From a virus (Duplodnaviria > Heunggongvirae > Uroviricota > Caudoviricetes), in the IMG/VR virus record IMGVR_UViG_3300043009_000101: 48,863 nucleotides of DNA; one strand, given 5' to 3'. The position numbers and the translations under genes are program-made. The notes below the pieces were generated by a model. The model worked only from the letters and a program-made list of their open reading frames with translations. It did not search any database and was not told where the DNA came from. Positions 1,887 to 34,540 of the stretch are shown in pieces. Each line of letters begins with the position of its first letter. Positions within the stretch are counted from its first letter, which is position 1.

Positions 1887-2930
1887 CTAAGAAATTAGAA
1901 CAGCACAGGCATAAGCACCTAAATCATAATACCCGATATAGATACCTTTCGCTTCGGCAAGTTCAATAATTGGTGCTGCTTGCTCTTTATAGTTAGGATT
2001 GACAATCACTAAGGTTGGCAATCTCCTAAGAATAGCACGGAAAGATTCACCTATACCGAGCTTGATTCGTTCGATATCTCTTACGGGAATGTATTGATAC
2101 AGTAAATTCAAAGCATGGGGAACAGCAGTAAAATTCTGTTCTTCTTTTGTTTTTACAGGCAAAGCTAACGGAAAATGTTGGGTAATCTCATCTAAAAAGA
2201 AATTCGTTTGGTCTTGAAAGGCGAGTTCTTCCCAGATTACTGCTCCGTGTTGACGGTGGGTTTCTAATGTAACCGTTCTGCTAACTAATCCGCTTACAGT
2301 AGCATTCAGGCAAGCACTAGGAATACAAATATCTCGCTTTGTCGCAGCCATATCTGCTGTATGTGCTGGGTCAGAAATGACTGCAAGATGTGTTGTAATA
2401 TGGGTATTGCGAGAAGCATTATATACGGTAACAGAGGACATTAAAGTATGTCCGATACCGCCTTTTCCAGTCCAAGCATCTATGAAAACAATTCGTTGGT
2501 CTGCATTTTTATGGTGAGCACAGATATAGTCTAATGCTTCAAAATCAATGCCCTCGTTGCGAATGATAGATACACTGTAATGTGGACAGTCTATTTGGAA
2601 TTTGAATTTCAGATATCGTTTTATCAATGCACCAATAGGTGTGCCAGCTCTTGCCAGAGAAACAATAATTGGATTTTCATAAGTATCGTGAATAGCCATA
2701 GACAAGGTAGCGATATAATTGGCTAAATCTTGTCCGTAACGAGATGTGAGGGTGTGGAATAGGTCTAGTTGCTTCGGGGAAGGAATTGCTTCTTGTCCGA
2801 GAACTTCTCCGTAAGAGTACCCTGCATGGATGCGGGCTTCTTTTTCTTCTTGGCTGACTATGGTGATTTCGTTGCTGAAATCTTCAAGCAGATATATACA
2901 ATCTTCTGGTGAAAAGGTGGATTCTATCAT
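1887..2930 (-). CDS. StiP-family cysteine protease-like protein with C-terminal PELOTA_1 domain (ter-associated cluster)
   Basis: Motifs VSLARAGTPIG, HYSVSIIR, FIDAWTGKG and C-terminal IKLGIGESFRAILRR. Start placed at ATG 2930 (ATGA overlap with the upstream stop) rather than 2957. Confidence 0.85.
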   Translation of the reverse strand: MIESTFSPEDCIYLLEDFSNEITIVSQEEKEARIHAGYSYGEVLGQEAIPSPKQLDLFHTLTSRYGQDLANYIATLSMAIHDTYENPIIVSLARAGTPIGALIKRYLKFKFQIDCPHYSVSIIRNEGIDFEALDYICAHHKNADQRIVFIDAWTGKGGIGHTLMSSVTVYNASRNTHITTHLAVISDPAHTADMAATKRDICIPSACLNATVSGLVSRTVTLETHRQHGAVIWEELAFQDQTNFFLDEITQHFPLALPVKTKEEQNFTAVPHALNLLYQYIPVRDIERIKLGIGESFRAILRRLPTLVIVNPNYKEQAAPIIELAEAKGIYIGYYDLGAYACAVLIS

Positions 2931-4114
2931 AAAACGAACTCCAGCATATGCGGGCAAAGAGCTAGATTCAACGGAAACTCTGTAAGGAGCAAGACTAAAT
3001 CGTAGTGCAAGGTGTCTTCCTGATTGTAGAGATGATAAGTTGCCTGAGTGTGTGGGTCTGTGTAAATCACTTCATCTTTGATAATTACACCATCACAATA
3101 AATTGGGCTTCTAGTGGTTGTTCTAAAATCTACATCAAGAGATTCCGATTGCAGATAAGCAGCAATACGGGAAGGTATATACATAGTTTCACCATGTCCG
3201 AGTACAAGAATCTTATGCTCATAGGCGAGATGCGGGCGGATTTTATTGGCTGCGGATTGGGCAAGTTTTTCTAGTTGCTTGATATCTTGGTAGTGCATAC
3301 CAAATCTGCCTGTGTGCTTTAAGTATAACTCACCATTCTTATAGCGTGGAAATAGATTTAATGCAAGTGGTGGGATAGGATTCGTTGCAGTGATTGGTGT
3401 AGAATCTTGGTTGTGTAAAATAACTGTTGGTTTCTGTGTATGGGAAAGAATTTCATCATCTGCATATAAGGAATAAACATGAATATGAATACCGTATGTG
3501 GCTGCATAGTGGTAATATCTTTGAATATCTTCCTTGCTGCGATTATCCATAATGGTTAAGATACTATACTCTCTGATGTTGGAGTTAGCACGGAGATTTG
3601 TAATTATATTTAAAAGAGAATGGCCTGTGCTAATTTCATCATCTACAAGAATAACTTCTTTAAACTTGTCTATCTCGACAAAATCGGAATAAAGAGTGTG
3701 GGTTGTAGCATGGCTGTGCTCTTCTTCAAATGTAAGCAGAGGAAGAACTTTTTTTACAGGTTCTCTTGTAGTATGAATATACACAGAACCGTCTATGGCA
3801 GATGCAACGGCTAAACCTAATGCAGTTGCTGTTTCGCAGAAGCCAATTACTAATGGTGGTGTATCTGTGGGAAAGGCTTGTAGCTTATAATTTGGTGCAG
3901 CATCATCGAAAATAGTATGTATGGAAAGCATTGGGTTGAACGGATACTTCAAAGAAGCAAGAAGATACCCTGTGGCTTTCACAGTTTCTGGTTTAACTGG
4001 AAGATGCTTACCTAGAAGCTTAGATATAAAGAGGAAATCACGATTCGGATTATCTACTCGCTTTCCCATGGTATAAATATCATCTGGGTTTAGATTGTAT
4101 GGGTTTTTTATCAT
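2927..4114 (-). CDS. Phosphoribosyltransferase (PRTase_2) with C-terminal TRSP domain (ter-associated cluster)
   Basis: NPNRDFLFISKLLGKH, GFCETATALG, PRPP-binding VILVDDEISTG, and TRSP-like LGHGETMY...TTTRSP. Confidence 0.85.
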   Translation of the reverse strand: MIKNPYNLNPDDIYTMGKRVDNPNRDFLFISKLLGKHLPVKPETVKATGYLLASLKYPFNPMLSIHTIFDDAAPNYKLQAFPTDTPPLVIGFCETATALGLAVASAIDGSVYIHTTREPVKKVLPLLTFEEEHSHATTHTLYSDFVEIDKFKEVILVDDEISTGHSLLNIITNLRANSNIREYSILTIMDNRSKEDIQRYYHYAATYGIHIHVYSLYADDEILSHTQKPTVILHNQDSTPITATNPIPPLALNLFPRYKNGELYLKHTGRFGMHYQDIKQLEKLAQSAANKIRPHLAYEHKILVLGHGETMYIPSRIAAYLQSESLDVDFRTTTRSPIYCDGVIIKDEVIYTDPHTQATYHLYNQEDTLHYDLVLLLTEFPLNLALCPHMLEFVL

Positions 4115-4170
4115 AAGAATTACCTTTTCTCTTTCTTAATAATGGTTGTAGCAGTGTTGGAAAAATTGAA

Positions 4171-5241
4171 TTATAAAGTATGCACATCTATGGATTCATC
4201 AGCAACACCGAAAACTTCTGCTTTGGCTAAAATCTTCTTAGCCCATGCAAGATGTGGGGAAACTTCGCACATCTGATTGGCGGATGTGCTTTTGAAAACA
4301 CCTGTTGCAGATTTTTCAGCAGCTTCTACGATGGACTTAGCATCTTTATACTCAGCATAAGATACGATAAATCGTTTACTAACGGGATTGATTTGTGAAG
4401 GGTGGATAATTGTTTTACCGTGAAAGCCGTTTTGAATATCTAAATCAAGTTCTTTGAGCAAGCCTTGAATTTCTGGTGAGTTAACAGACCACGAAAAGTA
4501 CTCCCAGACTGGTCCAGAGATTACATACCCTTGTGGAGTGCGGGAAAAGTAATTCAGAATGTCGGTTAAGGCATCGCTGACAACTTTTATGTCATAAATG
4601 GTCGTGGTCATACTTCTTCGTAAGCCATAAAGGGAAGAAAAATCTGTGCCACCAACTCGTAAGCCTAATATGTAGGAGTTGTATTGTTCGAAAATATGGC
4701 TTAGTTTTTCAAGCTCTTGTAGGCGGGTTTCTTTATACATCACTTGTGCATCTTCCAGTATAGGTAATCCGTAAAGTACAGAATTGGTAGAAATAGATAA
4801 CTGCTTTAAAGTTTCAAAGTAAGAGACAGCATTGGTACTGTTGCATTTTGGAAAATTAAAACCAGTCAAATATCTCAAATGCTTGGGTGTTAGCTTCTTG
4901 GCGAAGGCTTGAAACTGCTGAGGAGTTCTGACTCGTATAAAAAGAAGTGGAAGTTCTTCTGGATTGATATTTTTTTCGGCTAATTTGTTGAGAAGATACA
5001 ATGTTGTTATTTCTGCTTCGAGAACATCTTGCTCTTCGATAGCATCTTCCATGCATAGAGTTAAAGCACCCAAGTTAGTATACTTCTGCGTAACTAATTT
5101 TCTAAATATTTGTCTATTCGTAGCTGGGCAGTACATATTAGCACCGAGTGCATATTGTAGAATCTGCTTAGGTGTATCTTTTGTTATGGGAATTGGCTCC
5201 TTATAAAATTTCAATTTGTCAATGTCTTGAAAGTGCTGCAT
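4171..5241 (-). CDS. HpcH/HpaI aldolase / citrate lyase-beta family protein (ter-associated cluster)
   Basis: LGANMYCPAT, CMEDAI, RVGGTDFSSLYGLRR, SGPVWEYF, GKTIIHPSQI; RBS GAGGT. Confidence 0.85.
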   Translation of the reverse strand: MQHFQDIDKLKFYKEPIPITKDTPKQILQYALGANMYCPATNRQIFRKLVTQKYTNLGALTLCMEDAIEEQDVLEAEITTLYLLNKLAEKNINPEELPLLFIRVRTPQQFQAFAKKLTPKHLRYLTGFNFPKCNSTNAVSYFETLKQLSISTNSVLYGLPILEDAQVMYKETRLQELEKLSHIFEQYNSYILGLRVGGTDFSSLYGLRRSMTTTIYDIKVVSDALTDILNYFSRTPQGYVISGPVWEYFSWSVNSPEIQGLLKELDLDIQNGFHGKTIIHPSQINPVSKRFIVSYAEYKDAKSIVEAAEKSATGVFKSTSANQMCEVSPHLAWAKKILAKAEVFGVADESIDVHTL

Positions 5242-5333
5242 TTTTGTACCTCGTGTAAGATATATAGCGATTTTTCATAATTTTAAGCTGTGTACATAAA
5301 TTTAAGTTAATATTAGCACATAATAAAGGTATA

Positions 5334-5364
5334 AAAAATAACGGTGCTATGCACCGTTATTTTT
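5334..5364 (-). terminator. Intrinsic terminator (possibly bidirectional) closing the mini-CRISPR transcript
   Basis: Perfect 14-bp inverted repeat AAAAATAACGGTGC / GCACCGTTATTTTT with a 3-nt loop and T-tracts on both strands. Confidence 0.8.
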
Positions 5365-5389
5365 ATGTAAAGTGGAAACAAAAATCTGT

Positions 5390-5480
5390 GGAAACCAACC
5401 CCGCCCGTGCGGGGCAAACTCTTCAGGATTAATATTCTTTTCTGCGAGTTTGGAAACATCCCCGCCCGTGCGGGGCTCAC
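5390..5480 (-). CRISPR. Orphan type I-E-like CRISPR mini-array (repeat-spacer-repeat)
   Basis: Minus-strand repeats GTGAGCCCCGCACGGGCGGGGATGTTTCC (5480-5452, 29 nt) and GTTTGCCCCGCACGGGCGGGGTTGGTTTCC (5419-5390, 30 nt) share the CCCCGC..GCGGGG hairpin typical of type I-E. Spacer 5420-5451 is 32 nt. No cas genes in the window. Confidence 0.88.
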
Positions 5481-5535
5481 TTGTGTGTTTCCACTCAAGC
5501 ACCTCAATATATAATGCTTTTCCTTGTATGAATAT

Positions 5536-5563
5536 AGTATACCACTAAAATTACAATATGCAA
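5536..5563 (-). promoter_or_regulatory. SigmaA-type promoter upstream of the mini-array
   Basis: Minus strand TTGCAT-16 nt-TATACT with an extended -10 (TGgTATACT), about 55 bp upstream of the first repeat. Confidence 0.65.
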
Positions 5564-5692
5564 GAAAAAATTAAAAAATTCTCATAGCTATAAATATGAA
5601 AATGCCTTTTGCAGTATAAAATTTCTAAAATACTATACAATATAGATAAATTATTCTATACTATATATGAAGATATGAGGAGGATTAGTAAA

Positions 5693-5890
5693 ATGTATCA
5701 TATTGAATTTAAATACAAGGATAGTTGGAGCAGAGGTGCATGGCAACAGCAGGAATGCTTCGTTTCTTCTGTGCAGCAGTGTATAGATATTTACGGTCTT
5801 GGTATAGATTGCGACTACAAAATTTTACGAGTAGAAACAGAAGAAGAATACTATGAGCGAATGGCTCGGGAAAGAGAAAAGCAGATGTAA
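5693..5890 (+). CDS. Small hypothetical protein
   Basis: GAGGAGG RBS before ATG 5693 (MYHIEFKYKD...); the upstream extension in the ORF track is AT-rich promoter-like DNA. Confidence 0.75.
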   Translation: MYHIEFKYKDSWSRGAWQQQECFVSSVQQCIDIYGLGIDCDYKILRVETEEEYYERMAREREKQM

Positions 5891-5924
5891 AACATCTGCT
5901 TTTATTTTTTGTGGTAAGAGAATA

Positions 5925-6638
5925 TTACTCTTTATTTTCATACTTTTCGAGAAGTGCATCAAAAAGCATGTGTTCAGCTGCATTTTCTGAAATTTCGGTG
6001 ATGGCATACCCGACTTCTTTTTCGAGCTTGTCTAATGCATCATCTACATCTTTGACAAGTGTACGGGTGCATTTATATGCTTCGCAAAGGAAACGAGGGA
6101 AATCTTCTTTGTCTAAAATGTCATCTAAGGCAGCACGGGTCATCGTTTGTGCAAGTTGTGTTTCATAGGTTTGTACCCAGTCTGGATGTGTGGCTGTAAA
6201 GTAAGCAACAAATAGTTCCCAAATCTTATCATCGTGTTTTGTTTTTTCAAGTTTTCTCTCATCATCAAAAAAGTTATTAGCTTTTAAAATTTCCATATAA
6301 GCAAGATTCTCTTCTTTCTTTGCTTGGAATCGCTGGATTTGCTTGTCTAAATACTTATCTTCTTCCATACAGCCAGCGAAAATATTTTTCACTCTCGATT
6401 CACGGTAGTCGATGTCAAGCAAGGCAGTTTCCTTGCTAAAAATTTCGGTATGAATAGATGCTACAATTTGTTCAATCATATTAGATGCGAACTCCCTTTC
6501 TGTATTGTGTAGGTAGTTTGTCTTAGAAAAGACAACACAAAACTCTCTCTTTTGAATTAGTTTAGCATAAATGCAGACTAGATACAAAAAAAAGGCTAGG
6601 CAGTATGACAGTTGACCTAGCCCAATGATAAGGAGCAT
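5925..6638 (-). CDS. Hypothetical helical protein (true start probably downstream of 6638)
   Basis: Long ORF with a charged helical body; the annotated N-terminus runs through a hairpin and is doubtful. Confidence 0.7.
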   Translation of the reverse strand: MLLIIGLGQLSYCLAFFLYLVCIYAKLIQKREFCVVFSKTNYLHNTEREFASNMIEQIVASIHTEIFSKETALLDIDYRESRVKNIFAGCMEEDKYLDKQIQRFQAKKEENLAYMEILKANNFFDDERKLEKTKHDDKIWELFVAYFTATHPDWVQTYETQLAQTMTRAALDDILDKEDFPRFLCEAYKCTRTLVKDVDDALDKLEKEVGYAITEISENAAEHMLFDALLEKYENKE

Positions 6639-6783
6639 GCGAGGTTTTTACCTCGCACATTTATGTTATCACAGAACTATGTCATTTGCAACACGAAAAG
6701 CGAAAAATTTAAAAAATACCCAAATGATTACATATTGAACAGAAACTAAGGAAAAAGATATAATGTATATAGTATAGTGCCAT

Positions 6784-7212
6784 TTGAATATGGTAGAAAG
6801 GGAGCCTAAACCTATGGGTTATTATTCTTACTTTGATGTTTCTGTGTATGCTAATCCTGAGCAAGTACCCGCTAGGGATATACTGGTATGGATTCAAAAT
6901 CGCATGAAAGCTGACCGCAACTTCTTTTACCCGTTCGAGTATGTAGTGCAAGATTTACTCTCGCCTGAATCGGCGGAGTATTTGGCGGAGCACCCGTACT
7001 ATTTCCGATTGAGTGAAGAAGAGGAATTTAAATGGTATGCTGCATATAGAGAAATGCAAGAATTGTCAGAAGCCTTTCCTAGTGTTGTGTTTAAACTGAA
7101 TCGAAGCGGAGAGATGCCTGATGATAACTTTGATAGTTACTTTAAGGCGGGACAAAAGAAAGAATTTGACGGTACAATTCCTCTGCTGCGAGCGGAAGAT
7201 ATGTTTTTGTAG
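6784..7212 (+). CDS. Hypothetical protein
   Basis: 142-aa ORF (possible start at the internal MGYYS after AGGGAG), followed by a terminator. Confidence 0.75.
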   Translation: MNMVEREPKPMGYYSYFDVSVYANPEQVPARDILVWIQNRMKADRNFFYPFEYVVQDLLSPESAEYLAEHPYYFRLSEEEEFKWYAAYREMQELSEAFPSVVFKLNRSGEMPDDNFDSYFKAGQKKEFDGTIPLLRAEDMFL

Positions 7213-9710: not shown

Positions 9711-10457
9711 TTAACGGTTGTCTGCTAAGCGGTAATATCCTAAGATAACTTGCCCGTCTTGTGCTTCTAATGTGCTTACAACAGTTTGAGAACCGTACCA
9801 GCCACCATGTACTGCTTCACCGTTGCCGATATATACAGAAACATGATGTGTGTACACTGCGATATCGCCAGGAAGTAATTCATCTGCTGAAATGGGTGTA
9901 GCTTCCTGACTTAACCACCATGAACCAGCTTTATCATAATACCCGATAGATTCCAATGCTTTATTTACTAATTGAGTACAAGTATGTGTGTTGCCTACTT
10001 CATTGAGTGCAGCTTGTACGACAAGCTGTAAGTAATCCAATGTTTTATAAGTACAAGCACCCGTTTCGTCTACTTCATAATAATAGCCGTCTGCATTGAA
10101 AGATGTATCTTCGGCTAAACCATCTTCCGTAAAATATTTGTCATCCACCCAGCCAGTATACAAATAGCCATTTTCATCAAAATAATAACTGGTGTTGTCT
10201 ATTTCTTGTCTGCCAGTAGCAAAACCGTATTTAGAGAAAAACATTTTGTGTCCGTCTACGGTCTGCCAGCCTGTTTGCAATTCATTGTCTTTATAATATA
10301 AGCCATCTACATAGCCATTTAATACAACTTCTGGCTCGGAACTAGGTTCTTCTGTTAATTCCTCTGTTGCATCTGCTTCGACTGTTGCAGATTGGTTAGG
10401 TGCAATACCAAAAACAGATGAAAAGGAAAGTAATAAACTTAATAAAAAACTAACCAT
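9711..10457 (-). CDS. Secreted NlpC/P60-type cell-wall peptidase with cell-wall-binding repeats
   Basis: Signal peptide; TGWQTVDG / YYFDENGYLYTGW repeats; C-terminal CTQLV...PGDIAVYTHHVSVYIGNG with Cys and His. Confidence 0.8.
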   Translation of the reverse strand: MVSFLLSLLLSFSSVFGIAPNQSATVEADATEELTEEPSSEPEVVLNGYVDGLYYKDNELQTGWQTVDGHKMFFSKYGFATGRQEIDNTSYYFDENGYLYTGWVDDKYFTEDGLAEDTSFNADGYYYEVDETGACTYKTLDYLQLVVQAALNEVGNTHTCTQLVNKALESIGYYDKAGSWWLSQEATPISADELLPGDIAVYTHHVSVYIGNGEAVHGGWYGSQTVVSTLEAQDGQVILGYYRLADNR

Positions 10458-12335: not shown

Positions 12336-13994
12336 TTACAAACTATTTTCACTAGTTTGCTTTTTTGTAGTTTCATTCTTTTTCATATATTCTGATACAT
12401 CATATTGTCTAAACATTGCTCTATAAGCAATAACTAATGCAGCAGCTTGATGTTTACTGATTTTTTTCTTTTTAGCATACATTTTTTCTCCAATTTGTGT
12501 TGTATAAGCAGGTGATACAATAAATAGCTTTACATTTTGCTTAGAACATTTAGATTCAAAAGCAGCTCTATATCTTCTAGTAGCAAAATTATGTAATATT
12601 CTATTCATAGCAGATGTGTTGGTTTTATTTTGCTTCTTGGTAGTAAAGTCTAAGTCTTCTATTGAAATACCGTAATTCAGCTTTTTAGCTTCTTCTACTA
12701 TGGTATTAATAGCTTGCATAAGTGTTTTGGTATTTGTATATGAATTTTCTTCTGTTGTGAATACAATATCTTCATTTCTTATGCAACTTCTTTTTTTGTT
12801 TACATAAGAAGTGCTTAGAAAACCATTATTCATATCCACACCTATCATGCCATCTAGACCAGTTTTTCTAAAATAGCCTTGATTTACAATATCGTATTGT
12901 TTATTCACAATAGCAGCTTTTTTTGAACCTAGTTCTTTAAATTCTTTTGAATTAGGTGCAATTGTGCAGTTTCTTTGCATTGTTACATCTAAATACCAAG
13001 ATTTATTCTTTAAACTCTTTTTAAACTTGTAAAGAATAGCTTGATTATTGTTTTGTAATAATGTATTCAACTCTTCGTTGCAGTAAGGAATTTTAATAAC
13101 GATATACCTTGTATTGACACTATCATTTTGAAAGATAGATAAACATTTCATAATATAGTGATTGTTACTAGGCTTATCTGGATTCACAGGGTATAGCTTA
13201 ATCAGACGATTACCCTGTTCTTCATTTAAAGAACCCATTAGTGTAATGCATCTGTTTCTTTTTAAACGCCAAGCTTCTAACCATTTTACTTTTCTATTCA
13301 CATATCTATCCTCGTATTGAGCTTTAAATAGCTTATGTGTTCCAAAGCAATAATTTGTGATAACTTTTGTTTTTAAGATTTCTTCCATCGTTTTTTTACA
13401 ATGTGTTAGTCTTATTATAGCCTGTCGTTTTCTGTATATTCTTGTCTTGTAATTATCATTCAACTTACAAGCATCTTTTGGTGGTTTATACCAAGTAGAA
13501 ATGGCACTGTGAAAGCTAATTCTTTCCTGTTCTAATTTTTGAATTTCACTATTTAAAGAATCAATTTTCTTTTCTGTATTCTTTAAATAGGTTTCTGTTA
13601 ATTCAAGTTGAGCATCTATTATTTGTTGAGCTACAGTAATGGCATCATAAGCAACATTTGCTTTAATACCTAATTTCTTAGCTAATTCACCCCGATACTT
13701 ATCCTTTTTGACAGTTTTATTTTTACTAAGTTTAACAAATGCCATACGGACAGCTTTATTAAATACTTCACTTGCTTTGTCTAGATAAGGACACATACTT
13801 TCGTAACCTTTAAAAGTATTTAAAGATTCCAGTATATCTTCTAAATTTGTATTTTTTGAGACATTGAAAGGAACATCCGTTATTTTATTAGCATTAACAG
13901 CTAATCTATCAAATCTACCAGAAGTTGTAAATGTAATATCTTTCATATAAGTTTCAATAGCACCACACCATGGTATAGCATAAGTATTTGACAT
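12336..13994 (-). CDS. tnpB: Large TnpB-related RuvC protein (552 aa), no zinc finger
   Basis: RuvC-I GVDMN, RuvC-II IEDLDF, VSPAYTT, RuvC-III-like HQAAALVIA; lies downstream of IS607 tnpA. Confidence 0.8.
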   Translation of the reverse strand: MSNTYAIPWCGAIETYMKDITFTTSGRFDRLAVNANKITDVPFNVSKNTNLEDILESLNTFKGYESMCPYLDKASEVFNKAVRMAFVKLSKNKTVKKDKYRGELAKKLGIKANVAYDAITVAQQIIDAQLELTETYLKNTEKKIDSLNSEIQKLEQERISFHSAISTWYKPPKDACKLNDNYKTRIYRKRQAIIRLTHCKKTMEEILKTKVITNYCFGTHKLFKAQYEDRYVNRKVKWLEAWRLKRNRCITLMGSLNEEQGNRLIKLYPVNPDKPSNNHYIMKCLSIFQNDSVNTRYIVIKIPYCNEELNTLLQNNNQAILYKFKKSLKNKSWYLDVTMQRNCTIAPNSKEFKELGSKKAAIVNKQYDIVNQGYFRKTGLDGMIGVDMNNGFLSTSYVNKKRSCIRNEDIVFTTEENSYTNTKTLMQAINTIVEEAKKLNYGISIEDLDFTTKKQNKTNTSAMNRILHNFATRRYRAAFESKCSKQNVKLFIVSPAYTTQIGEKMYAKKKKISKHQAAALVIAYRAMFRQYDVSEYMKKNETTKKQTSENSL

Positions 13995-14015
13995 TTACGA
14001 ACCTCCTTTCAAATA

Positions 14016-14669
14016 CTATTCTATAAATACCTCATCAATTTTGTCTTTAAGCTTCTTAGTATCTTGTCTTCGTAAACTGTATAATTTACCAGAAAAGGAA
14101 GCTATTAAAGACATCATATCTTCTACAAGTTCTTCTTGATTTGTTTTTGCAAAATCATCTTTTACTAAAATGATTTTAACATGGAAAACATTGAAATATC
14201 TAACAAGGTAATCAAAACCAAATCTTGTTAATCTATCCTTGTATGTAATAAATACACGATTAACTTCATTGTTTTCTATCATCTTGAATAATTTCAGTAA
14301 ATTCTTTCTATTTTGATTTAAGCCAGAACCGACATCTTTTAAAATAACTGGTGAATAAAGATTGTATTCTGCTGTATTCTCTAAAATATAGAGTACTTGC
14401 CTATCTAAATCTCCTGTGTTTTTCTGCTTTTGAGAGGAAACTCTAGCATAGATTACATCCTTTTTTAAGGAAGAATCTTGGTAAAGACCTCGTTCTTTAC
14501 CAACTCTTATTATCTCAGCTTTTGGTATGTAATGGCGATTATCAATAGTTACTGAATCTATTTTACCATTATGAGTCCAATTATAAAGAGTTCTTGGTTC
14601 TATACTTAAAAGTCTTTTTACATCCGCTGGTTTGTAAAACTCTTTATCTAAATCCGAATCGCTAAACAT
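14016..14669 (-). CDS. tnpA: IS607-family transposase (wHTH + serine recombinase)
   Basis: N-terminal MerR-like HTH, YARVSS, DVGSGLN, YKDRLTRFG, ELVEDMMSLIASFSGKLY. Confidence 0.92.
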   Translation of the reverse strand: MFSDSDLDKEFYKPADVKRLLSIEPRTLYNWTHNGKIDSVTIDNRHYIPKAEIIRVGKERGLYQDSSLKKDVIYARVSSQKQKNTGDLDRQVLYILENTAEYNLYSPVILKDVGSGLNQNRKNLLKLFKMIENNEVNRVFITYKDRLTRFGFDYLVRYFNVFHVKIILVKDDFAKTNQEELVEDMMSLIASFSGKLYSLRRQDTKKLKDKIDEVFIE

Positions 14670-15875: not shown

Positions 15876-16853
15876 CTAGTTCATGGCATCAGATAAGAAA
15901 CTCAGACGATAATACCCGTAGAATGAATCTGAATCAGTATCCACTTTCTGGGTGCCTGTTCCGTCAGAAGCAACCATTGTTCCATTTCCAAGATAAATGC
16001 CCGCACTGATTTTTGAACCGTCTGAATCTTTCAATGTAACAATATCACCAGGCATTGGGTCTGTGGTGTAATCACCAACAACTTTACTATCTGTTATATC
16101 TACATCATAATCAGCAAAAACTTCTTTAATAAAGTCTTTTTCTAAATCTGCTTTCTTTGTAGCAGTAGCTGCAACTTGCAAGCCTAAATCCGTAGCTTTG
16201 TAAGTAATTGTACCTGAATCATCTGTCTCAAAATAGATACTTCCGATTTTCTGACTTCCTACAAACAATGTTCCGTCACTGTTGTAATATTTATCACCTA
16301 ACATACCGCTGTACAATGTACCGTCTGCTTGGAAATAGTAGGAAGCATTGTTAATCGTCTGTGAACCTGTAACCATTTTGCCATTTGAATCAAAATACCG
16401 TTTTTCTGGTGTTTCTTGCCAGCCTGTCTGCATTATACCATTTTCATCAAAATAGTATGTTGCATCATCAATCTTTTTTAAGCCAGTTTGAATTACACCA
16501 TCAACAACATAGTATAAATCATCATTGAAAGTATGCCAGCCAGTCGAAGCTCTACCCTCTTCTGTAAACAAAATCAGTGAACCCGTCAACTGCTGAATAC
16601 CCGATTGCTCTTTTCCGTCCTCACCGAAGTACCTCTCTTCTGGTGTGTACTGGATGCCTGTGAGCATTTTACCATCGTCATCAAAATAGTAAGTAGCACC
16701 ATCTATTTCTTGCAAACCTGTAAGCAATTCGTTACTGCTTACATAATAAGTGTTGCTGTTAATAGTTTGCCAACCATCTGTTGTTGTCATGGTGGCGTAG
16801 GTTGTTGGGAGAAGTGAAGCTACTACAAAATTAACGACCCAAACAATAAACAC
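15876..16853 (-). CDS. Secreted cell-wall-binding repeat protein with a degenerate NlpC/P60-like C-terminus
   Basis: Many TGLQEIDG/YYFDENG repeats; PGDIVTL...GIYLGNG scaffold lacking the catalytic Cys/His. Confidence 0.8.
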   Translation of the reverse strand: MFIVWVVNFVVASLLPTTYATMTTTDGWQTINSNTYYVSSNELLTGLQEIDGATYYFDDDGKMLTGIQYTPEERYFGEDGKEQSGIQQLTGSLILFTEEGRASTGWHTFNDDLYYVVDGVIQTGLKKIDDATYYFDENGIMQTGWQETPEKRYFDSNGKMVTGSQTINNASYYFQADGTLYSGMLGDKYYNSDGTLFVGSQKIGSIYFETDDSGTITYKATDLGLQVAATATKKADLEKDFIKEVFADYDVDITDSKVVGDYTTDPMPGDIVTLKDSDGSKISAGIYLGNGTMVASDGTGTQKVDTDSDSFYGYYRLSFLSDAMN

Positions 16854-32222: not shown

Positions 32223-33824
32223 CTATTTATACTCCTCTACATCAAATTGCTTTCCCATAGCTCGTAGAGCTATGGTCAAAGCAGCAGCTTGATGTACACT
32301 AATTTCATATTTAGGTGCATATAATTTTCTACCTATACGAGTAGTATATGCAGGAGATACAATGAAAAATCTTACATTATTTTTAGAACATGCAGATTCA
32401 AAGGCTTCTCTACATCTTCTAGTAGCAAAATTATGTAACATTCTATTCCTTGCTTTTCCATTTTTAGCTCTTTTCTTTTTTGTAAAGTCTAAATCTTCGA
32501 TAGCAATACCATAATTTAGTTCCTTAGCCTCTTTAACTAACTCACTAATATGAGTTAATAATCGTTCTTTATTCTTTGTTGAGCTGTCTTCCGTTGTAAA
32601 GAATAAATCTTTACTTCTTTCATATTCTTCCTTTTTGCTTAAATAAGTAGCACTAAGGAAACCGTCATTCATATCAACACCAATCATCCCAGATAATTTC
32701 GTGTTTTCAAAGTAAGTATCATCAATATAGGCATATTTCCTGTTTTTTAGGAATGCTTCCTCTTTATCTAAGGATTGGAACTCCCTAGAATTCGCTTTAA
32801 TAGTACGATTTCTTTGGAGAATTACATCTAGATACCAAGAATAGCCATCTTTAGCTCTCTTAAAGCGATATTGTACTGCTTGATTATTTAGCATTAAAAC
32901 CTCATTTAAGAAAGCACGATTGTAAGGTATTCTAATAATAAAATACCTAGCTTTTTTCATGTCATCTCGAAATATAGATAGACATCTCATAATAAAATAT
33001 TGATTATCAAATGAGCCCTCTTTAACAGAATAAAGTTTAATTAACCTATTTCCTTGAGCTTCATCTTGAGAACCACCAAATACAATGCATCTATCTCTTC
33101 TCAATCGCCATTTTTCTAACCATTTTGCATGATTGTACTTATAGTTAGAATTTTGCTTTTTAAAGAAATACCAACCACCAAAACAATAATGTTTTATAAT
33201 TTTAGTGTTCACTTCTTTTTCTAATGCTTGCAACTCATATTGTTTTTTTATTATAGCTTGCTTTTTCCAATAGAGAGCCTTTTTTAAGTGTGCATTTTGA
33301 ATACAAGCATCCTTAGGTGGATACAACCAATTTCTAACAGATAAATTGTATTCTATCCTTTTATTTTCCAGTTCTGCATATTCCTTCTTTAGTACTTCAA
33401 GTCTTGCTTTCAAATCTACAATTCTCTTTTTAGTACTTTCAAAATGAGCATCTCTGTATTTTTCTGCTTCTGATATAGCATCATATGCTACAGAAACTTT
33501 GATACCCAACCTATCTGCTAATACTTTTCTATATTGAGTTTTGGAAACTGCTTTTCCTTTATTACAATGTGAAAAAGCTATACGAACAGCTTCACCATAG
33601 ACAGCTGATGATTTATCCAAATACCTAGTTAATTCGTTGTAATTATCCTCAGAATTCAACTGAGTTAATAACTCTTTTTCTGAAATTCCGGGTACATTGA
33701 AAGGTATTTTAGTAATTTTGGATTTCTTCATAGCAAATTTATCTAATCTACCAGAAGTAGTAAATGTAATATCTTTCATAAAATTTTCCACAGCACCACA
33801 CCATGGTATTTTAAAATCTGCCAT
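32223..33824 (-). CDS. tnpB: Large TnpB-related RuvC protein (533 aa), no zinc finger
   Basis: GVDMND, IEDLDF, VSPAYTT, HQAAALTIA; collinear with 12336..13994. Confidence 0.8.
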   Translation of the reverse strand: MADFKIPWCGAVENFMKDITFTTSGRLDKFAMKKSKITKIPFNVPGISEKELLTQLNSEDNYNELTRYLDKSSAVYGEAVRIAFSHCNKGKAVSKTQYRKVLADRLGIKVSVAYDAISEAEKYRDAHFESTKKRIVDLKARLEVLKKEYAELENKRIEYNLSVRNWLYPPKDACIQNAHLKKALYWKKQAIIKKQYELQALEKEVNTKIIKHYCFGGWYFFKKQNSNYKYNHAKWLEKWRLRRDRCIVFGGSQDEAQGNRLIKLYSVKEGSFDNQYFIMRCLSIFRDDMKKARYFIIRIPYNRAFLNEVLMLNNQAVQYRFKRAKDGYSWYLDVILQRNRTIKANSREFQSLDKEEAFLKNRKYAYIDDTYFENTKLSGMIGVDMNDGFLSATYLSKKEEYERSKDLFFTTEDSSTKNKERLLTHISELVKEAKELNYGIAIEDLDFTKKKRAKNGKARNRMLHNFATRRCREAFESACSKNNVRFFIVSPAYTTRIGRKLYAPKYEISVHQAAALTIALRAMGKQFDVEEYK

Positions 33825-33843
33825 TTATAGAAGCCTCCTTACT

Positions 33844-34515
33844 CTAAACTTCTTCTGTAAATACCTCATCAATTTTGTCTTTGAGTTTCTTAGCATCTTT
33901 TTTGGTATCTTGCTTTCTTAAGCGATATAATTTACCAGAAAAAGAAGCTATTAAAGACATCATATCTTCTACAAGTTCTTCTTGATTCGTTTTTACAAAA
34001 TCATCTTTTACTAAAACAATCTTTACATTGAATACTGCAAAATATCTAACAAGATATTCATAGCCAAAGCGGGTTAGTCTATCTTTGTAAGTAATAAATA
34101 CCCGATTTACTTCATTGTTCTCAATCATCTTAAAGAGTTTTAGTAAATTCTTTCTTTTCTGATTTAAACCAGAACCCACATCTTTTAGAATAACTGGTGA
34201 ATATAACTTGTAATCTGTTGTATTCTCTAAAATATAGAGAACTTGTCTATCTAAATCACCGTCATTCTTCTGCTTTTGAGATGAAACCCTAGCATAGATA
34301 ACATCTTTCTTTGTACAGTCTTCTAAGTAAAGACCTCGTTCTTTACCTAATCGTATGATTTCTTTTTTAGGTACATAGTTTCTATTATTTATGCTTACTG
34401 ATTCTATTTTACCATTATGAGTCCAGTTGTAAAGAGTTCTTTGTTCTATACCTAACAGTTTTCTAACATCAGCGGGCTTATAAAACTCTTTCTTTAAATC
34501 AAAATCACTAAACAT
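33844..34515 (-). CDS. tnpA: IS607-family transposase
   Basis: Close paralog of 14016..14669; start ATG 34515 after GAGAGG. Confidence 0.92.
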   Translation of the reverse strand: MFSDFDLKKEFYKPADVRKLLGIEQRTLYNWTHNGKIESVSINNRNYVPKKEIIRLGKERGLYLEDCTKKDVIYARVSSQKQKNDGDLDRQVLYILENTTDYKLYSPVILKDVGSGLNQKRKNLLKLFKMIENNEVNRVFITYKDRLTRFGYEYLVRYFAVFNVKIVLVKDDFVKTNQEELVEDMMSLIASFSGKLYRLRKQDTKKDAKKLKDKIDEVFTEEV

Positions 34516-34540
34516 ATGTTTACCTCTCAATCTTGATTAC

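Follow-up and report, generated by a model that had tools for sequence, protein, structure and literature searches.

A type I-E CRISPR mini-array beside the C-C lyase operon of a very large gut phage and its probable use in competition between phages

This study describes a minimal CRISPR unit found in IMG/VR record IMGVR_UViG_3300043009_000101, a virus of the Caudoviricetes; the whole stretch analysed, 48,863 nucleotides (nt) long, is referred to below as the window. On the minus strand, positions 5563-5328 hold in order a promoter-like site, a leader, repeat 1, a spacer, repeat 2, a short trailer and a terminator. We regard this unit, with a probability of roughly 0.7, as a virus-borne type I-E mini-array serving competition between phages, in view of the published pattern of viral mini-arrays. 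These have a single spacer, a complete and a truncated repeat and an upstream promoter and depend on host Cas proteins; their spacers are directed against genes that lie close by in related viruses, the corresponding locus of the carrier itself being mutated (PMC6858448, PMC8616872, PMC11656645, PMC7162821). The first-pass annotation of this DNA had proposed a promoter, two repeats, a spacer and a terminator, and direct reading of the minus strand found all of them where it had placed them. It overlooked the main functional clue, which is that the spacer matches the neighbouring gene, and virus-borne mini-arrays with exactly this behaviour have already been described (PMC6858448, PMC11656645, PMC8616872).

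Apart from the spacer itself, its best match in the window (26 of 32 positions) lies on the same strand in the adjacent C-C_Bond_Lyase gene, 434 nt from the spacer, and none of 1000 shuffles of the spacer reached 26 matching positions anywhere in the window. The match is in frame and covers codons 86-96 of the lyase. All six mismatches between the spacer and this self-site (spacer positions 4, 6, 9, 15, 21 and 27) are synonymous, the probability that six random substitutions would preserve the peptide being 5e-6. The peptide encoded by the spacer falls in the least conserved stretch of the lyase protein family, and the nearest non-self homologue of the lyase in a set of 5.8 billion proteins shares only 61% identity with it. 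As the mismatches are all synonymous within the most variable stretch of the family, the source of the spacer was a close allele of the adjacent gene. Judged from the sequences, the spacer derives from such a close coding allele, and not from a distant homologue or a decaying local duplicate; it is a genuine CRISPR spacer captured from another allele of the neighbouring gene. The idea that the mismatches favour the positions paired by Cascade was rejected: the positions are the right ones, but the preference falls short of significance (P = 0.10, or 0.26 with weighting for codon degeneracy) and their placement cannot be told apart from neutral synonymous divergence.

The protospacer-adjacent motif (PAM) was estimated from Sutterella-type arrays whose repeats end in ATGTTTCY, by comparing their spacers with four complete gut gokushovirus genomes at a threshold of 28/32. 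At this threshold, 131 distinct spacers of the repeat family matched gokushoviruses, and the triplet directly 5' of the protospacer read AAC in 55 and AAT in 43 of them, which corresponds to 75% AAY against a background of 3.6%. We infer from these counts that AAY is the PAM of the ATGTTTCY-repeat family. Furthermore, the last repeat base (C or T) equalled the PAM base at -1 in 118 of the 131 cases, and this copying is the type I-E signature of a PAM-derived repeat end. In the window, AAC (background 1.7%) likewise stands immediately 5' of the self-site, and C is the last base of repeat 1. The orientation, the length of the spacer, the PAM and the PAM-derived base are all in keeping with capture by a type I-E adaptation complex of this repeat family. 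No other finding argues as strongly as this agreement for a true CRISPR array that is read on the minus strand. As a separate observation, the human-gut Sutterella-type I-E arrays with this repeat end (L039-L090, L096-L099) carry many spacers against gut gokushoviruses.

The coordinates of the unit and of the neighbouring genes are collected in Table 1.

Table 1. Features of the mini-array, its self-site and the adjacent operon in the window
Feature	Position	Strand	Description
Predicted promoter	5536..5563	-	TTGCAT -35-like (5563-5558), 16-nt gap, TGgTATACT extended -10 (5544-5536)
5' leader, ~49 nt	5481..5529	-	contains GTGGAAAC at 5494-5487
Repeat 1, 29 nt	5452..5480	-	5-nt flank, 6-bp CCCCGC/GCGGGG stem, ACGG loop, 8-nt ATGTTTCC
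Spacer, 32 nt	5420..5451	-	direct reading
Repeat 2, 30 nt	5390..5419	-	5' flank and hairpin intact; 3' part degenerate (TTGGTTTCC)
Predicted mature CRISPR RNA, 61 nt	5399..5459	-	8-nt handle + 32-nt spacer + 21-nt 3' hairpin
Intrinsic terminator	5328..5364	-	hairpin 5364-5334, 14-bp stem, 3-nt loop, U run; -17.1 kcal/mol, z = -6.3
Self-site homologous to protospacer	4955..4989	-	4955-4986 match, AAC at PAM position 4987-4989
C-C_Bond_Lyase gene	4171..5241	-	PF15617, 5.5e-110; array neighbour, spacer-source family, first operon gene
PRTase_2/TRSP gene	2927-4114	-	PF15609 with PF12500
StiP cysteine protease/PELOTA gene	1887-2957	-	PF11202 with PF15608

The geometry of the unit is that of type I-E. 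The E. coli I-E repeat has a 5-6-4-6-8 layout with a CCCCGC/GCGGGG stem, and the window shows 5-6-4-6-8 repeats with a period of about 61 nt and a 32-nt spacer, repeat 2 having one extra base in its 3' part. The E. coli-type geometry claimed in the first-pass annotation is thus borne out, and hairpin and handle are those of natural I-E arrays. The last 8 nt of repeat 1, ATGTTTCC, form the predicted 5' handle of the CRISPR RNA (crRNA), and the first 21 nt of repeat 2 its predicted 3' hairpin, which the computed fold displays. From the established cut of Cas6e at the 3' base of the repeat hairpin we infer a crRNA of 61 nt, and the ends calculated for it earlier (5459 and 5399) follow correctly from the coordinates. 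The 3' part of repeat 2, TTGGTTTCC, had been called degenerate, and it does carry one insertion of 1 nt and one A>T substitution. Repeat decay is limited to this part and to the 5' flank of repeat 1. As these are the repeat halves that would lie outside the mature crRNA, the pattern fits selection for exactly one guide.

For the promoter, the first reading had given TTGCAT-16-TATACT with an extended -10. The site and its extended -10 are present, but the -35 hexamer agrees with TTGACA at only three of six positions, which is why a consensus promoter scan did not call it; the assignment depends on the extended -10, not on the -35. The predicted transcription start lies near 5529 on the minus strand. 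The same TTG...TGnTA...T layout is also found upstream of several other genes of the window. The terminator is as strong as had been stated, and a further terminator upstream, at 5909-5871, ends the preceding gene; with its own promoter and terminator, the array is therefore bracketed as a predicted transcription unit of its own. Within it, GTGGAAAC of the leader is complementary to two copies of GTTTCCAC located just 3' of repeat 2 (5388-5395 and 5372-5379, minus strand), and in the minimum-energy fold a long-range GTGGAAAC/GTTTCCAC stem closes the entire array. This stem may serve to stabilise or present the precursor. None of the RNA runs listed contained the array itself, and RNA contigs cover the genes flanking the array and not positions 5318-5578, which weighs neither way on expression. 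The RNA contigs of two studies stop at 5239 and 5244, beside the lyase start codon, at a depth of about 3, a faint hint that the operon mRNA excludes the array.

Two side observations concern the same region. The segment 5506-5566, which comprises the promoter and the first transcribed bases, is common to at least three other contigs of run X1 with 0-5 differences, and these contigs diverge into unrelated sequence on both sides of it, which suggests a promoter module that recurs elsewhere in the element. In the same run, a 77-nt unitig of similar depth spans the leader and repeat 1 (5459-5529) with five differences, for example at 5494 and 5495, and could be either a second leader-repeat copy, slightly altered, elsewhere in the genome or a variant from a strain present alongside.

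Repeats 1 and 2 have identical all-GC hairpins of 16 nt, spaced 61 nt apart; no further hairpin of this kind occurs in the window, where shuffled sequences lead to an expectation of 0.00. This bears on the reading that the unit is not CRISPR at all but a structured 5' leader of the lyase operon, of the attenuator or riboswitch kind, or a chance pair of GC hairpins. The order of promoter, structured RNA, terminator and a gene 93 nt downstream is indeed leader-like, and the fold is very stable (z = -6.6). However, the unit has no Rfam match, its hairpin, its handle, the period of 61 nt and the insert of 32 nt are as in natural I-E arrays, and the insert differs from a coding segment by synonymous changes only, with the family PAM at the homologous site, a relation that would be unaccounted for in a leader. 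We consider a non-CRISPR origin extremely improbable.

Two scans for natural relatives of the repeat placed the unit in the type I-E repeat family. The first required the exact 16-nt hairpin twice at array spacing in one genome per prokaryotic species and returned 36 loci, which are long CRISPR arrays with a 61-nt period, among them those of Ruminococcus sp. YE71 and of a metagenome-assembled genome of a rumen Lachnospiraceae. The second covered metagenome contigs, required the stem with any loop followed by the 8-nt 3' segment ATGTTTCC and returned 52 loci, most of them long arrays of 61-nt period in human-gut contigs. The genes cas3, cse1, cse2, cas6e, cas7, cas5, cas1e and cas2e flank the array at one of them, L039, whose Cas6e and Cas7 carry the NCBI name Sutterella wadsworthensis. 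Since natural arrays beside an I-E cas operon carry it, the predicted handle ATGTTTCC is a real I-E crRNA handle in nature. In the viral contig collection, the hairpin pair was found only in an unrelated high-GC contig, and the hairpin with the handle was not found. A further candidate relative, a single hairpin with handle on a 615-kb contig (L049), was rejected, as it was unrelated to the window by tblastx and stood in a terminator-like position between genes. At L039 and L060, the array lies between cas5 and cas1, and cas6e precedes cas7.

Several results weigh against a working mini-array used between phages. No natural array with exactly the window's repeat was found, in contig collections that exclude the samples carrying the element. 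The closest repeat agreed at 23-24 of 29 positions, measured against a functional composite of the 5' 21 nt of repeat 2 and the 3' 8 nt of repeat 1. The repeat search proposed earlier as a means of naming the host's I-E system accordingly led to the stem and handle in natural I-E arrays, but to no closer repeat than this. In addition, the CRISPR-DR models of Rfam missed the repeats, no other family being found at the unit either (4500-6500, E <= 10). The arrays sharing the handle are proteobacterial, whereas the element resembles a phage of a Gram-positive host. The array locus is 100% identical in all other contigs recovered (L038, L092-L095), with no spacer turnover seen. Finally, a perfectly matching protospacer was found in none of the searched collections. 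The back-translated protospacer had no match in viral contigs, and the spacer gave only weak AT-rich partial matches (E >= 0.09) against phages and plasmids. In a separate comparison, about 2,000 distinct spacers of host arrays set against the window gave nothing above 20/22.

Some of these results can also be read as the marks of an inert relic, a unit that came from a host array or used to be functional and that now lacks a compatible Cas6e/Cascade in the current host. The lack of an exact host repeat, the mismatch between the handle-bearing taxa (Sutterella-type) and the apparent Gram-positive host, the degenerate repeat 2 and the invariance of the locus across samples all fit such a fate. 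On the other hand, everything required for one mature crRNA is intact, with decay confined to dispensable halves, the dedicated promoter and the strong terminator have been retained, and the 16-nt hairpins are still identical in a genome of 36% GC. A relic is, in our view, improbable.

If the unit functions in competition between phages, its host-type extended -10 promoter would give an RNA of about 200 nt, of repeat-spacer-repeat structure, ending at the unit's own terminator. Cas6e supplied in trans, by the host or putatively from elsewhere on the element, would cut every repeat hairpin at its 3' base, and the resulting 61-nt crRNA would be loaded into Cascade. The guide would then aim at a C-C lyase allele with an AAC PAM in related phages or other elements, so that the infected cell would destroy a co-infecting or superinfecting relative via Cas3. 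The element's own copy, which keeps the PAM, would be spared by its six synonymous differences, including one at seed position 4. According to the seed rules of type I-E, a seed mismatch impairs Cascade binding and interference. In the self-site, seed position 4 is mismatched, as is one position in each later 5-nt segment, and self-interference should therefore be prevented.

A supply of Cas proteins in trans is in line with the gene content of the window, in which no Cas families were detected among about 50 open reading frames scanned with Pfam, PHROGs and PADLOC; the earlier statement that no cas genes occur in 49 kb holds within that scan. The earlier proposal of a minimal cassette exploiting host Cas6e/Cascade is upheld in so far as the unit is of type I-E without nearby cas genes, has a repeat of natural type and possesses a PAM-flanked spacer homologue, but no host with the exact repeat was found to complete it.

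The partly matching self-site, which adjoins the guide and keeps its PAM, could alternatively be the actual target of a crRNA-like regulator: guide-loaded Cascade would bind the site in the lyase gene without cleavage and block transcription of the operon, in the manner of CreA, CreR or Cracr. Regulation of adjacent genes by crRNA-like RNAs of partial complementarity has been described (bioRxiv 10.1101/2023.03.03.530964, 10.1101/2024.10.29.618823). Known I-E crRNA-like RNAs, however, carry short pseudo-spacers (21-24 nt) that pair with promoters in a contiguous PAM-proximal stretch, whereas the spacer here is 32 nt long and corresponds to codons within a gene. Moreover, with a mismatch at seed position 4 and one per 5-nt paired segment, the I-E seed rules predict poor binding, and seed matches to cas promoters in the fetched I-E loci were at chance (about 5 seen against about 5 expected). 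A regulatory role is thus very improbable.

A comparison with known systems supports the reading as a mini-array directed at other phages. A close parallel is provided by the Saccharolobus portogloboviruses SPV1 and SPV2 (Medvedeva et al. 2019, PMC6858448), in which a viral array of one to a few spacers, with no cas genes alongside and a promoter upstream, targets a close relative near the array, the virus's own orthologous locus being point-mutated; here, the own site carries six synonymous changes. For SPV1/SPV2, superinfection exclusion via host Cas proteins was shown experimentally (PMC6858448), whereas here the mechanism is read from sequence. The two cases also differ in that SPV1/SPV2 are archaeal and have type I-A/III-related repeats identical to those of host arrays, leaders and spacer acquisition, while the present unit is bacterial and of type I-E.

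The mini-arrays of phages and prophages reported, alongside solitary repeat units, by Faure et al. (2019), as far as they are relayed in PMC8616872 and PMC11656645, similarly have one spacer, a complete and a truncated or degenerate repeat and a putative promoter. In these accounts they share with our unit the lack of an adaptation leader and the dependence, predicted for the present unit, on host Cas proteins, and some of their spacers target adjacent genes of close relatives and not of the carrier. Their repeats are described there as usually identical or near-identical to those of the host, in contrast to the best value obtained here, although stem and handle are identical. The compact arrays of huge phages (Al-Shayeb et al. 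2020, PMC7162821) also occur in very large phage-like genomes with no interference or adaptation genes nearby, with a proposed use of host Cas proteins against competing phages; they have a median of six repeats, compared with the minimal two here.

The first-pass annotation had also offered an RNA anti-CRISPR (Racr) as an alternative, in which the transcript would titrate host Cas6e/Cascade or fill Cascade with a harmless guide and so lower host immunity. Phage-encoded repeat mimics of this kind are transcribed as small RNAs, engage Cas6 and Cas7 and can inhibit CRISPR-Cas (Camara-Wilpert et al. 2023, PMC10651486); moreover, a phage crRNA of any kind, if abundant, will compete for Cas proteins (bioRxiv 10.1101/2024.10.29.618823), and the unit does have its own promoter. 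Racrs, however, are solitary repeats without a functional spacer (PMC10651486), whereas the window has two repeats and a canonical 32-nt spacer of coding ancestry with a PAM-flanked target homologue, which a pure decoy would not need. The viral Cracr arrays (bioRxiv 10.1101/2024.10.29.618823) are likewise phage-borne I-E repeat-spacer units with degenerate repeats, and are processed by host Cas6e, but the pseudo-spacers of the I-E Cracrs match host cas promoters, unlike the spacer here, which matches phage coding sequence. The decoy is accordingly the weaker reading and quite improbable, although decoy and targeting roles are not mutually exclusive.

The free-standing homing endonucleases of T4-like phages, known from intronless homing and marker exclusion, place a specificity determinant beside a resistant target allele, while relatives carry the sensitive allele. 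By analogy, the mini-array and the synonymously recoded immune allele might form one linked selfish cassette, an RNA-guided counterpart in which the determinant would be a guide RNA using host Cascade-Cas3. In mixed infections, the guide-programmed Cascade-Cas3 would cut the sensitive C-C lyase operon allele of a related phage, and the break would be repaired by recombination with the resident genome, which would bring in the immune allele and, with it, the neighbouring guide; in this way the cassette would spread in the phage population. We regard this extension of the competition reading as unlikely. If true, it would explain why viral mini-arrays lie close to their targets, a closeness pointed out in PMC6858448 as lacking an explanation.

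As a mini-array for competition between phages, the unit enlarges the small group of mini-arrays known from viruses by a clean bacterial example of type I-E, located in a very large gut phage. It is an unusually legible case, as the guide is a synonymous variant of the adjacent gene, the PAM is retained and only the unneeded repeat halves have decayed. Specialists may find the clean synonymous recoding, the linkage of guide and immune allele over 434 nt and the megaphage setting worthy of note. The understanding of CRISPR would remain unchanged unless the linked guide and immune allele act as a homing-like drive. The reading further predicts the CRISPR subtype of the host (I-E, handle ATGTTTCC, PAM AAY), which may aid the host assignment of this uncultured megaphage, and a sister phage lineage that carries the exact protospacer. 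The unit also represents a compact natural promoter-repeat-spacer-repeat-terminator cassette for I-E systems.

The operon to which the lyase belongs (1887-5241, minus strand) lies directly downstream of the array. Sets of C-C_Bond_Lyase, PRTase_2-TRSP and StiP-PELOTA genes are linked to tellurite-type stress systems and are predicted to make a nucleoside-like metabolite; here a phage-like element carries such a set. The closest named homologues of the operon are from Clostridia and Anaerobutyricum, at 54-57% identity. Diverged lyase alleles were found in other animal-gut samples, on contigs that do not span the protospacer; per ~150 nt they differ at 5-11 positions, and of the 10 differences listed, 8 fall at third codon positions. 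In the animal-gut metatranscriptome runs X3 and X4, diverged alleles were present at 4541-4750, in the lyase gene, and at 6304-6454, in an upstream gene of 237 amino acids (aa). These alleles differ by 3-7%, mostly at third codon positions, and the same RNA libraries also contain the window's alleles of both genes. The diverged alleles of X3 and X4 indicate that related strains of the element circulate. The viral contig collection held no relatives of the C-C lyase, and a blastn search of the phage collection with 4000-7000 gave no match.

The window encodes phage-type helicase, exonuclease and endolysin-like proteins. Among them are choline-binding and cell-wall-binding repeat proteins at 9711-10457 and 15876-16853 (minus strand), which match phage endolysin families. 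Based on these choline-binding endolysin-like proteins and on the Clostridia-like homologues of the C-C lyase, a Gram-positive host can be argued for.

The window further contains two IS607-like pairs, at 12336-14669 and 32223-34530 (minus strand), each consisting of a serine-recombinase TnpA and a large TnpB-like protein (552 and 533 aa). A TnpB paralogue is located on a contig of 576,898 nt, and a TnpB copy with 96% identity occurs on a 275,938-nt contig from another sample (L091), in a different neighbourhood that includes NrdD, FHA, PP2C and kinases.

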